DNA of 51,815 nt from a virus. Taxonomy: Duplodnaviria; Heunggongvirae; Uroviricota; Caudoviricetes. The stretch lies in IMG/VR virus record IMGVR_UViG_2563366933_000008. One strand, given 5' to 3'. Position numbers: made by a program. Every line of letters starts with the position of its first letter. The first letter of the stretch is position 1. This document shows positions 15,001 to 18,000 of the stretch, piece by piece.

Positions 15001-18000
15001 GATGAATTGCGAGTCAGAGCATCCTGTTAGTATTGGCATTAATTCTGATATACTACATAACGGGCTGAACACCCATTCTACTGCGCCAGCGGAGAACTAC
15101 GATGGCGCATATACAACTGGTCAAACAAACCTCTTCCGGATTACTTCTCCCGGCGACGCCGGAGAGTTGCGATTTTCTGCATCAAATCAAAATAGGCGAG
15201 TGGATACACGCTGACTTTAAGCGTGTTCGTAACTACGCATTCCACAAGCGTTTTTTCAAACTCCTGCAATTGGGATTCGATTACTGGACTCCGGCCGGTG
15301 GGGCGATCACGCCTCGCGAACGAGAACTGGTGTCCGGTTTCGTTGATTTCCTGTGCGAATCAGTAGGTCGGGAACATACGCCAGCCCTGAGTGATGCCGC
15401 AGAGCAATACCTTAACACCGTTGCGACTCGCAGAACCCGGGATACGGCATTACTCAAGTCATTTGACGCTTTCCGCGAGTGGGTAACCATTCAGGCTGGA
15501 TTTTACACCGAGCATTTTTATCCTGATGGTAGTCGTGGGCGTCGGGCGAAATCCATCGCGTTTGCGAATATGGACGAAACCGAGTTTCAGCAGGTTTATA
15601 AATCTGTACTGAATGTGCTGTGGAACTGGATTCTGTTCCGTAAATTTTCCTCTCCGGAACAAGTCGAAAATGTGGCCGCGCAGCTACTGGAGTTTGCGTA
15701 ATGGTGGATTTACGTAAAGCGGCGCGGGGCCAGATGTGCCAGGTCAGAATCCCTGGCTACTGCAATCACAATCCCGAAACTTCTGTGCTGGCGCATTACA
15801 GGTTGGCAGGGACGTGCGGAACAGCGACAAAACCACACGATATGCAGGCAGCGATTGCCTGTAACTCATGCCACGATTTAATCGACGGGCGGGTAAAAAC
15901 CAGCGATTACACCAAAGAAGAATTACGCCTGATGCATGCAGAAGGTGTTTTTCGCACGCAAGAAATCTGGAGAAAGGAAGGTTATTTATGATTTACCCAA
16001 CAAATACAGGCAAAAGCGGGGAACACCTTCGTCTCACCACGCTGGAAAGTGTCTGGATTCAGGGAAAACTGCGCATGTGGGGGCGCTGGTCGTATATTGG
16101 CGGCGGTAAGACGGGGAATATGTTTAACCAGTTGCTGGCGTCAAAAAAATTGACGAAAACAGCCATCAATGAAGCCCTGCGCAGAATGAAAAAAGCGGGA
16201 ATAGAGAAAGCTGAGCTGGAAGCGTTTTTGCGAGAGATGATCAACGGCAAGCAAAAGAGCTGGCTGGCGCATTGTACTGATGCAGAGGCACTAAAAATTG
16301 ATAGTGTTATAGGTGAAGTTCTGGCGGATCATCCAGGACTACTAAATGTCCTGAGTCAGCGTTATGTGGGGCGAGGGATGAGTAAGAGAAGGATGGCCGA
16401 GTTATTAAACGAACAGTACCCAGAGTGGGCGTTGATTACATGCCGACGTCGTGTTGATCAGTGGTTGCGTGTTGCTGAGTTCATTTTGTATTCACCTATG
16501 AGAGAAGCGTTCGATTATGCTTAAAAAAGCATTGCAAAATGAGCCACAAACTGCTTCAATTTCGGTACGCTTCGCATAGCTGTATCGCGAGGCAAATTAA
16601 GCGCATGAACTTTAATACAACCCGCCATTGAGCGGGTTTTGTTGTTTCTGTGGCGTGATATCAGAAACGACATTTAATAATCGCCTTCAAAATAAATTTG
16701 TTTATACATTGTCATGTATATTTTAAGTGAAAGTGAATTATTCACATAAAATAAAAACACATAAATAAATTTACATAACTTGACGCAAAGTGTTGTTGCG
16801 ATTGGAATATTAAATCGTATCATCGAAAACGGTTCTGAGGGGGAACTCTTCTTTGCTCGGTGATATCGCTCCCCTGAAGAACCAATGCCGACTTAGCTCA
16901 GTAGGTAGAGCAACTGACTTGTAATCAGTAGGTCACCAGTTCGATTCCGGTAGTCGGCACCATATGCGGGTATCGTATAATGGCTATTACCTCAGCCTTC
17001 CAAGCTGATGATGCGGGTTCGATTCCCGCTACCCGCTCCAGCATTTGAAACAAGCCTTATTGTATTGCGGCACTGGCGTATTTTTTTATTACGTGGGAGC
17101 AGGTTGTTTTGAAAAAGCATTCTGTTCTCTGGCTATGATTTGAGGCCGGGTGTAGCCTCAGTGCTGATTTTTTACGGCAGCAGAATGGTGCATTATCGGT
17201 GGAGATTTTGTATTTCCTGGCAGGGTCGGTGATGCATCATTCTGGTGTTGTAAAAGCACCGCAGAGGCGTTCCTCAGGGCGAGGGTGGTTTAAAGAGTCG
17301 GTTTAGCGGGAAACCACAGTATCCATACGGCACGGAATACTTCGGGAGGCACCCGACGCCTCGGTTTTATAACAATTAAATAATTCATCCCTTAATTGAC
17401 CAACCGCCGTATCAGGCGGTTTTTTTTATTCCTTTCTCAGGACAAAAAAATACACGAGCATCCAGGAATACTCGTGGGACAACGTCCTTTGGATAGCAAT
17501 TTGCGAGAGGGTGAAAAGTAGCGCGGTCGTCGGATTAAGACCGCGGGACAAAGTCCATGAAGAAGAATAAGTATCGGTCTCCTTCCGGAGACGAGTTGAT
17601 ATTACTAAGCTTTAAAAATGGTTTAAATCCTCAGATCAACCTTAATTTCAGATAAGGTTTATTTCATTTTCTCCGCGTCACATCCGACGCACATCACATC
17701 AGATAACACCACACAAAAGGCATCTGCGGGTGTCTTTGACGGGGGGTTTTTTACGGGCCGCTGGTGGCCATTTTTTGTTTCCATTACACAGCGCCCGCAT
17801 CTGCGAGGTGGGGGTTATGAAATCCATGGATAAGTTAACAACGGGTGTCGCCTATGGCACCTCCGCAGGCAGTGCTGGCTACTGGTTTTTACAGCTGCTC
17901 GATAAAGTCACGCCCTCACAGTGGGCAGCAATAGGTGTGCTGGGTAGCTTGGTATTTGGCCTGCTGACGTACCTGACAAACCTTTATTTCAAGATTAAAG

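Follow-up and report, generated by a model that had tools for sequence, protein, structure and literature searches.

We analysed a 51,815-nucleotide stretch of viral DNA (the window; IMG/VR virus record IMGVR_UViG_2563366933_000008, Caudoviricetes) that contains a pair of transfer RNA (tRNA) genes, tRNA-Thr(UGU) and tRNA-Gly(UCC), between a Q-like late antiterminator gene and the lysis cassette of a lambdoid prophage. ARAGORN called them as the only two tRNA genes in the window, both on the plus strand and 3 nt (TAT) apart, and the Rfam family RF00005 matched each well above its gathering score of 29 (E = 2e-14 for Thr and 4e-12 for Gly; bit scores in Table 1), a signal far above chance. Both genes score as elongator tRNAs over the curated threshold of that family, with ARAGORN concurring on boundaries and anticodons. 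A first-pass annotation made from the sequence alone had proposed the same pair with the same coordinates, anticodons and gap, all of them exact, and had named a rejected first structure or a different anticodon as grounds for abandoning it; both programs call Thr(UGU). It had also placed the pair correctly, as the gene upstream matches DUF1133 and Phage_antitermQ and the gene downstream encodes a P21-type holin.

Each gene closely matches a host counterpart. The Thr gene is identical to thrU of Escherichia coli K-12, whereas the Gly gene differs from glyT at two positions, C6 to T and G66 to A (numbering of the 75-nt gene). Because these two differences are the two sides of one acceptor-stem pair, turning the sixth pair from C6-G66 into U6-A66, the change is compensatory. 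This pair makes the Gly copy the only one of the two that could be distinguished from its host tRNA. The first-pass annotation had recognized the near-identity of the Gly gene to glyT and overlooked the full identity of the Thr gene to thrU. Threonyl-tRNA synthetase recognizes its substrate through G1-C72, C2-G71, G35 and U36, and glycyl-tRNA synthetase through G1-C72, C2-G71, G3-C70, C35, C36 and U73. These identity elements are intact in both genes, since the Thr gene has the thrU sequence throughout and the Gly gene has the UCC anticodon, U as the discriminator base and unchanged pairs at G1, C2 and G3. In the established tRNA gene set of K-12, tRNA-Thr(UGU) of the thrU type and tRNA-Gly(UCC) of the glyT type are the sole E. 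coli decoders of ACA and GGA, respectively.

In K-12, the host copies belong to the operon thrU-tyrU-glyT-thrT-tufB, with which the prophage pair shares the mature tRNA sequences (76 of 76 and 73 of 75 positions) and the Thr-before-Gly order. The two loci differ in structure: thrU and glyT are separated by 8 nt, tyrU and a further 116 nt in the host but by 3 nt in the prophage, thrT and tufB are found only in the host, and the promoter, leader and trailer of the host operon are unrelated to those of the prophage in a comparison of 60 nt upstream, the spacer and 60 nt downstream. Nothing of the host operon survives around the prophage pair, which lacks tyrU and thrT, and the earlier suggestion of acquisition from a host is thus supported by the identity of the mature sequences only. 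Continuing gene conversion from host copies could also maintain this identity.

To assess conservation, we used an exact-pattern scan of IMG/VR that returned at least 120 contigs; all viral-contig counts given in this text are among the matches listed. The search pattern preset the spacer length (3 nt), its outer bases and part of both genes, so that conservation of these bases holds by construction and spacer conservation is unreadable from the scans; the 3-nt spacer is present in all phages found by BLAST. Of 117 complete viral copies listed, 70 (60%) have a Thr gene identical to thrU, and the top variant (21 copies) carries T16C and T20C, in the D loop only. The Gly gene is identical to glyT in 51 of the 117 (44%), the C6T and G66A changes of the window recur in 34, and a second compensatory pair, G48A with C64T, is also seen. 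An alignment of seven Q-to-holin intervals showed nearly invariant tRNA bodies between flanks that are largely unalignable. Because the changes fall in the D loop or form compensatory stem pairs while the flanks no longer align, the tRNA bodies are under purifying selection for a working cloverleaf rather than in decay.

Conservation extends upstream of the tRNA genes. After a very AT-rich stretch, the promoter scan identified a sigma-70-like element, the putative tRNA promoter (pT-like in Table 1), and its motif TTGnnn-16-TAnnAT is present in all 27 distinct upstream variants listed, ending 6-8 nt before the leader start GGTTCY. A promoter score of at least 9/12 was reached by 85% of upstream variants versus 9% of shuffles. 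In phage phi467, where the cassette follows stxB, and in SerU-LTIIb, where it follows a methylase gene, an equivalent promoter candidate lies 62-67 nt upstream of tRNA-Thr, making three gene contexts with that of the window. The leader that follows is 50-69 nt long across variants, and in the same 27 variants its ends form a consensus helix, GGTTCY-GA-GGGG with CCCY-GA-RGAACC. RNAalifold analysis of 19 distinct leaders supported 10 pairs in this helix, 4 of them with compensatory changes; 94.7% of cells were paired, compared with at most 73% when partners were slid, and none of 500 shuffles reached the observed covariation score. Possible roles for the helix are stabilization of the transcript or a degenerate tRNA remnant. 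Another sigma-70-like match, TCGGCA-16-TATAAT (10/12; 16954-16981, plus strand), runs from the 3' end of the Thr gene across the 3-nt spacer into the D-arm of the Gly gene and occurs in every copy; it is probably incidental, because transcription from it would start inside the D-arm of tRNA-Gly.

Nearer to the Q-like gene lies a candidate Q-dependent late promoter of the pR' type, which, together with a conserved leader of ~80 nt, is found in at least five diverged variants among viral contigs. A strict consensus scanner did not call this element, at 16532-16560, and we read it from the sequence as a putative promoter. In the window, the leader after it contains a CGCTTCGC/GCGAGGCG hairpin and then runs into a tR'-like terminator. 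Terminators of this kind lie 200-280 nt upstream of tRNA-Thr in 71 of the 106 viral loci listed. The tRNA pair lies between this pR'-like promoter and tR'-like terminator, both conserved across variants and both putative in function, on one side and the holin gene on the other. By analogy, the segment 16532-16645 looks like a short pR'-tR' transcript, of the 6S or StxS kind, belonging to a DUF1133-type Q.

Downstream of the pair, covariation revealed a long RNA hairpin in the 3' trailer. The segment 17161-17260 lies at a fixed offset from tRNA-Gly in 60 of 114 viral loci, and its hairpin comprises 27 pairs, 98.1% paired versus at most 59% with slid partners, in the 21 distinct sequences listed. 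It is formed by plus-strand RNA, as the many switches from G-U to G-C or A-U fit only that strand. An Rfam scan of the hairpin gave no family above threshold; cleavage by RNase III or a regulatory function are possible roles for it. A strong intrinsic terminator then closes the cassette. It is conserved in phage vB_EcoS-683R6 and in both copies carried by SerU-LTIIb, and terminators also follow the arrays of JLK-2012, PhiR47_1, phi467 and SerU-LTIIb; the cassette is always parted from the holin gene by a terminator. A weaker terminator-like site at 17140-17161 is kept in SerU-LTIIb copy 1 and disrupted in 683R6, and we did not rely on it.

Several known RNAs were considered for this trailer. 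Among the prophage small RNAs (sRNAs) of the STnc100, PasD and StxS type, which occupy the Q-to-lysis interval, the trailer block ending at the 17402-17429 terminator aligns weakly: 17237-17429 matched STnc100 (RF02076) over its full length but with 17.5 bits against a gathering score of 47 (E = 0.1-0.4), and is not a member. A true member, scoring 107 bits, follows the tRNA array of JLK-2012. Probe sequences for PasA and PasC (PMC8550237, Table S6) had no match in the window at up to three mismatches, so the trailer is neither of these. The sRNAs pasA and pasC are reported to lie immediately before lambdoid holin genes, and tRNA hits next to them were read as prophage integration sites (bioRxiv 10.64898/2026.05.13.724894); by analogy with the window, some of these hits may instead be phage-borne cassettes of the Q-to-holin interval. 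Two further Rfam matches were dismissed, 'Plastid-ycf2', which is the antisense of the tRNAs, and a miRNA precursor, which only reflects the long hairpin.

Table 1. Features of the Q-to-holin interval, in window coordinates
Feature	Position	Strand	Evidence and details
Q-like late antiterminator gene	15988-16524	+	DUF1133, 342 bits; Phage_antitermQ PF06530, 28.2 bits versus a cut-off of 26; RefSeq WP_000640127.1
Candidate pR'-like Q-dependent late promoter	16532-16560	+	TTGCAA, 17-nt spacer, extended -10 TG-n-TTCAAT (TGcTTCAAT); starts 8 nt past the Q stop codon
tR'-like intrinsic terminator	16619-16645	+	7-bp stem with 5 G-C pairs, T-run; terminator scan
Putative tRNA promoter (pT-like)	16796-16823	+	TTGCGA-16 nt-TATCAT, sigma-70-like, after a very AT-rich stretch; promoter scan
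5' leader	16831-16886	+	Helix of 16831-16842 (GGTTCT-GA-GGGG) with 16872-16883 (CCCT-GA-AGAACC), ending 3 nt before tRNA-Thr
tRNA-Thr(UGU)	16887-16962	+	ARAGORN; Rfam 73.8 bits; 76/76 versus K-12 thrU; RefSeq tRNA feature; CCA encoded
tRNA-Gly(UCC)	16966-17040	+	ARAGORN; Rfam 65.6 bits; 73/75 versus glyT; CCA encoded
3' trailer long RNA hairpin (84 nt)	17171-17254	+	Covariation
Strong intrinsic terminator before holin gene	17402-17429	+	AACCGCCGTATCAGGCGGTT then T8; terminator scan
Holin gene essD, P21-type, first of the lysis cassette	17817-18032	+	Pfam Phage_holin_2_1, 121 bits; RefSeq

That phages carry tRNA genes at this map position is known from the Shiga toxin (Stx) phages onward, and the first-pass annotation had likened the pair to the ileZ, argN and argO genes of those phages. 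The record of Stx phage 933W (NC_000924) bears this out. Its order is Q, pR', qut, two terminators, a 'pT putative tRNA promoter', ileZ-argN-argO and a terminator, followed later by the lysis genes S and R; as in the window, where the pR' element and its terminator are candidates, the tRNA cluster comes after Q, pR' and terminators and before cargo and lysis genes, has its own upstream promoter (in the window, a candidate by consensus and conservation), and decodes codons that the host uses rarely and the phage often. The two clusters differ in content, as the 933W tRNAs are Ile2-CAU and two Arg species with distinct isoacceptor bodies, whereas those of the window are Thr-UGU and Gly-UCC and are identical or nearly identical to host genes. 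They also differ in that the annotated pT of 933W stops 10 nt before ileZ, whereas the window has a structured leader of ~56 nt instead.

Sister phages connect the two kinds of cluster directly. An ileZ-like tRNA (anticodon CAT) and an argN-type tRNA stand immediately before Thr-Gly in at least 52 viral contigs, and in PhiR47_1 the CAT tRNA is identical to 933W ileZ (76/76) while the second tRNA has the 933W argN body with another anticodon. Because ileZ and argN-type tRNAs are joined to the pair in these phages, the Thr-Gly pair belongs to the tRNA-array family of the lambdoid Stx phages. Across IMG/VR, ARAGORN resolved at least 49 arrays of Thr-Gly, at least 38 of CAT-Lys-Thr-Gly, at least 14 of CAT-Arg(tct)-Thr-Gly and a few others. 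Anticodon switches on fixed bodies were also observed in sister phages, two IMG/VR contigs among them: thrU-derived tRNAs occur with UCU (nominally Arg, in SerU-LTIIb) or UUU (nominally Lys), and the 933W argN body occurs with UCG, UCU or UUU.

In several deposited phages, this interval likewise contains the pair. They are vB_EcoS-683R6, which is Rac-like and carries trkG as well; SerU-LTIIb, which has the pair twice through a tandem duplication of the cassette-holin segment; the Stx phage phi467, in which the pair comes after stxB; PhiR47_1, with the array CAT-Lys-Thr-Gly; and JLK-2012, with Asn, a degenerate Thr and Gly. We next queried bacterial genomes with 63 nt across the Thr/Gly junction only, a query to which the host operon can give no contiguous match. 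The junction was present in 869 of 5,426 complete E. coli genomes (16%), at 1,052 sites, as many as 5 of them in one genome, and almost every site is annotated as tRNA-Thr next to tRNA-Gly. Among contigs representing one genome per species, it was found in E. coli, E. albertii, E. ruysiae, Shigella flexneri, Citrobacter braakii and Enterobacter hormaechei. One more enterobacterial junction, on a 423-bp contig of 0.67x coverage in a Corallococcus exercitus assembly (NZ_RAVW01000911.1), is most likely contamination. Both tRNAs had already been annotated by PGAP/RefSeq in the E. coli N1420 chromosome that contains this prophage, and the pair is thus a common and ordinary prophage feature that is already known from this genome and from the 869 complete E. 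coli genomes.

We then compared codon usage between the annotated coding sequences of the prophage and 55 typical K-12 genes, an analysis that the first-pass annotation had called for (Table 2). ACA and GGA are enriched in the prophage 3.0-fold and 2.1-fold, respectively, relative to the host, and their use is highest in cargo genes. When all 61 codons are ranked by absolute excess over the host, AAT is first, ACA second, AAA third, ATA fourth, GGA fifth and AGA sixth. These six codons match the six tRNA species that sister phages carry at this position (Asn, Thr, Lys, ileZ, Gly and Arg-UCU), and the chance that two random tRNA species would both fall in the top five is ~1%.

Table 2. ACA and GGA usage per 1,000 codons
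Gene set	ACA	GGA
All prophage genes	17.3	16.0
Typical K-12 genes	5.5	7.4
Ribosomal and elongation-factor genes	3.5	1.9
trkG	20.6	26.8
cdtABC	22.9	31.4
Omptin and hydrolase	28.4	22.2
intR	36.5	26.8

Taken with the intact genes and their maintenance by selection, this bias leads us to favour, with moderate confidence, an interpretation in which the pair are two functional phage-borne copies of host minor tRNAs that add to the supply of the only decoders of ACA and GGA when AT-rich genes of the phage and its cargo are translated. The proposed order of elements is Q, pR'-like promoter, tR'-like terminator, tRNA promoter, leader, Thr, Gly, hairpin, terminator and holin gene. The sigma-70 promoter at ~16796-16823 would start a transcript near position 16831, whose 5' leader would fold into the helix, and RNase P together with 3' trimming enzymes would release both tRNAs. 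The terminator at 17402-17429 would keep cassette transcription off the lysis genes; a design with a constitutive promoter needs a terminator before those genes, and its presence fits. The cassette lies downstream of the pR'-like promoter and tR'-like terminator, so that Q-modified polymerase would probably read through it during lytic growth, when replication of the prophage would also multiply the copies of the tRNA genes. ACA and GGA decoder supply might then be doubled in the lysogen and become much larger after induction, easing translation of ACA/GGA-rich, AT-rich genes such as trkG, cdtABC, the omptin gene and the integrase gene, with a presumed benefit to the element's fitness. The layout supports this scheme, in that the promoter is kept in position and spacing, the leader covaries and the order matches that annotated for 933W.

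Several observations weigh against codon supply as the explanation. In relative terms, the enrichment of AGA, AGG and ATA exceeds that of ACA and GGA, yet the prophage has no tRNA for these three codons. With one uniform open reading frame caller applied to one non-carrier (lambda) and two carriers (PhiR47_1 and the window), ACA/GGA usage per 1,000 codons was 13.5/13.4 in lambda, which has no tRNA genes, 13.0/12.4 in PhiR47_1, which has a four-tRNA array, 17.6/15.9 in the window and 4.5/7.1 in the host. Because lambda without tRNAs resembles PhiR47_1, the bias does not separate carriers from non-carriers, and codon adaptation was likewise found not to differ between lambdoid phages with and without tRNA genes (PMC4631060). 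Lytic-phase benefits are also perhaps lost for the prophage copy in the window, because it contains several pseudogenes (sieB, ynaK and a tail-fibre gene). The ACA/GGA bias is lambdoid-wide and prophage-wide rather than cargo-specific, and the lambda control warns against taking codon bias alone as proof of a supply function. It is mostly the AT-rich cargo that lifts the window above lambda, in agreement with the earlier suggestion that the tRNAs could support expression of cargo such as trkG and cdt: ACA and GGA use is indeed highest there, but the enrichment runs through the whole prophage and lambda is nearly alike, so that a benefit of the tRNAs is plausible, though neither it nor a need for them follows from the bias. 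In every element open to checking, the first-pass interpretation was supported.

Codon supply might instead matter chiefly to the lysogen. In this alternative, which we consider unlikely, a constitutive promoter raises ACA and GGA decoding for AT-rich acquired genes, including virulence islands and other prophages, and the lytic cycle is secondary. The promoter does look constitutive, terminators shield the lysis genes from it, cargo genes make the highest use of the two codons, and the pair, found in 16% of complete E. coli genomes in as many as five copies, is kept in prophages that contain pseudogenes. Yet one added gene copy of each tRNA is a modest change, and the element is equally present in free, inducible phages.

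It is similarly improbable that the pair is a neutral passenger and recombination linker, a 154-bp block kept host-like by gene conversion that serves as a homology patch at the Q/lysis boundary for swaps of the late region. Such a role would suit the frequency of host-identical copies (60% for Thr and 44% for Gly among the 117 viral copies listed), the tandem duplication of the cassette-holin segment in SerU-LTIIb, and the varied modules between which the pair is found, after Q, stxB, a methylase gene or ileZ and an argN-type tRNA, with some trailers shared independently of upstream context. The pattern of substitution argues for something more than homology, as substitutions avoid stems or compensate and the promoter and leader helix are conserved or covary, which indicates that expression and structure are under selection. 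Copies that have degenerated, like the Thr gene of JLK-2012, are rare.

A link to host defence deserves consideration given recent work on immune systems that attack tRNAs. tRNA-Thr(UGU) is a prime target of AriB, of the PARIS system, whereas T5 tRNA variants substituted at positions 39 and 41 are resistant to the nuclease and neutralize PARIS when over-expressed (PMC12409363). The toxSAS toxin FaRel2 inactivates tRNA-Gly and tRNA-Thr specifically, recognizing the acceptor-stem features common to both, G1-C72, C2-G71, G4-C69 and R5-Y68 (PMC11559606). The pair could accordingly act as replenishment or as a decoy, its additional copies keeping phage translation going when the immune systems of bacteria or of rival phages destroy or inactivate these tRNAs. 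For the tRNA clusters of the virulent phages T4 and T5 that counter PARIS and Retron-Eco7, a phage tRNA-Thr(UGU) is among the tRNAs shown to matter against PARIS. The species attacked by PARIS, Thr-UGU, Lys-UUU and Asn-GUU, are all present in lambdoid arrays around the Thr-Gly pair, sister arrays adding Lys(UUU) and Asn(GUU), a striking overlap. The equal codon bias of carriers and non-carriers also leaves room for a role beyond codon supply.

The sequences of the two genes make this anti-defence role doubtful for the window. Its tRNA-Thr is an isoacceptor of a defence-nuclease target but has the sequence of the host tRNA that AriB cleaves and none of the T5 resistance substitutions at positions 39-41. 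Both tRNAs retain all four FaRel2 determinants, and the Gly change at 6:66 lies outside them. We accordingly rejected the idea that the window pair consists of escape variants. T5 differs in other ways as well, being a lytic phage with ~20 tRNAs, the relevant ones cleavage-resistant, whereas the window is a temperate prophage with two tRNAs, one of them the cleavable host Thr. tRNA-Gly(UCC) has not been reported as a PARIS target, and FaRel2 is of Firmicute origin and gave no phage protection in E. coli (PMC11559606). As the Thr copy does not differ from the host tRNA that PARIS can cleave, any anti-defence role would be limited to replenishment or competition through dosage, and a genomic tRNA-Thr copy was reported to be insufficient for phage T5Mos (PMC12409363). 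Broader still, and quite improbable in our view, is a mobile lambdoid cassette with the Thr-Gly pair as its conserved core, maintained mainly for conflict with tRNA-targeting immunity (PARIS and Gly/Thr toxins) rather than for codon supply, with the leader and trailer perhaps acting as regulatory sRNAs. The anti-defence role of temperate-phage tRNAs is nevertheless testable now that tRNA-Thr(UGU) is known as a PARIS target.

Literature searches found no description of the Thr-Gly pair, and the promoter-leader-tRNA-hairpin cassette seems undescribed, although within it only the leader helix and trailer hairpin appear new. As it stands, the finding is of little import, since the position was known and the genes were annotated; modestly useful points are that the pair shares an array family with ileZ and argN, that it moves within a conserved cassette, and that its tRNA-Thr species is a PARIS target.

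The wider element was identified through the 9000-30000 segment of the window, which matches the E. coli N1420 chromosome (NZ_CP176489.1) at 100% identity. RefSeq annotation of N1420 shows a full-length Rac-type lambdoid prophage with cdt-IV, inserted beside ttcA. Its genes run from intR, xisR, ralR, recT, recE, kilR, the repressor and cro-like genes, ydaT/U/V, QueH, hokD and a Doc toxin gene, through DUF1367, YbcO (DUF1364), DUF1133, the two tRNAs, essD, rrrD, rzoR and trkG, to the terminase, head and tail genes, cdtABC of type IV, an alpha/beta hydrolase and the omptin gene. RefSeq marks sieB as frameshifted (~7400-7900), and ynaK (20720-20980) and the tail-fibre gene (42450-42815) as truncated. 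This cdt-IV Rac-type prophage copy may therefore be defective, though its tRNA cassette is intact.

A second tRNA-related function resides in the same element, which encodes an epoxyqueuosine reductase, QueH (12644-13309, plus strand; Pfam, 221 bits). This step of the tRNA-queuosine pathway is usually supplied in E. coli by QueG, and ttcA, beside which the prophage is inserted, is the gene for tRNA 2-thiocytidine synthetase. The prophage also contains three toxin-antitoxin modules: the RalA sRNA with ralR (1557-1735, 215 bits), sok with hokD (13377-13552, 120 bits), and a Doc-family toxin with a small open reading frame upstream (14109-14594).

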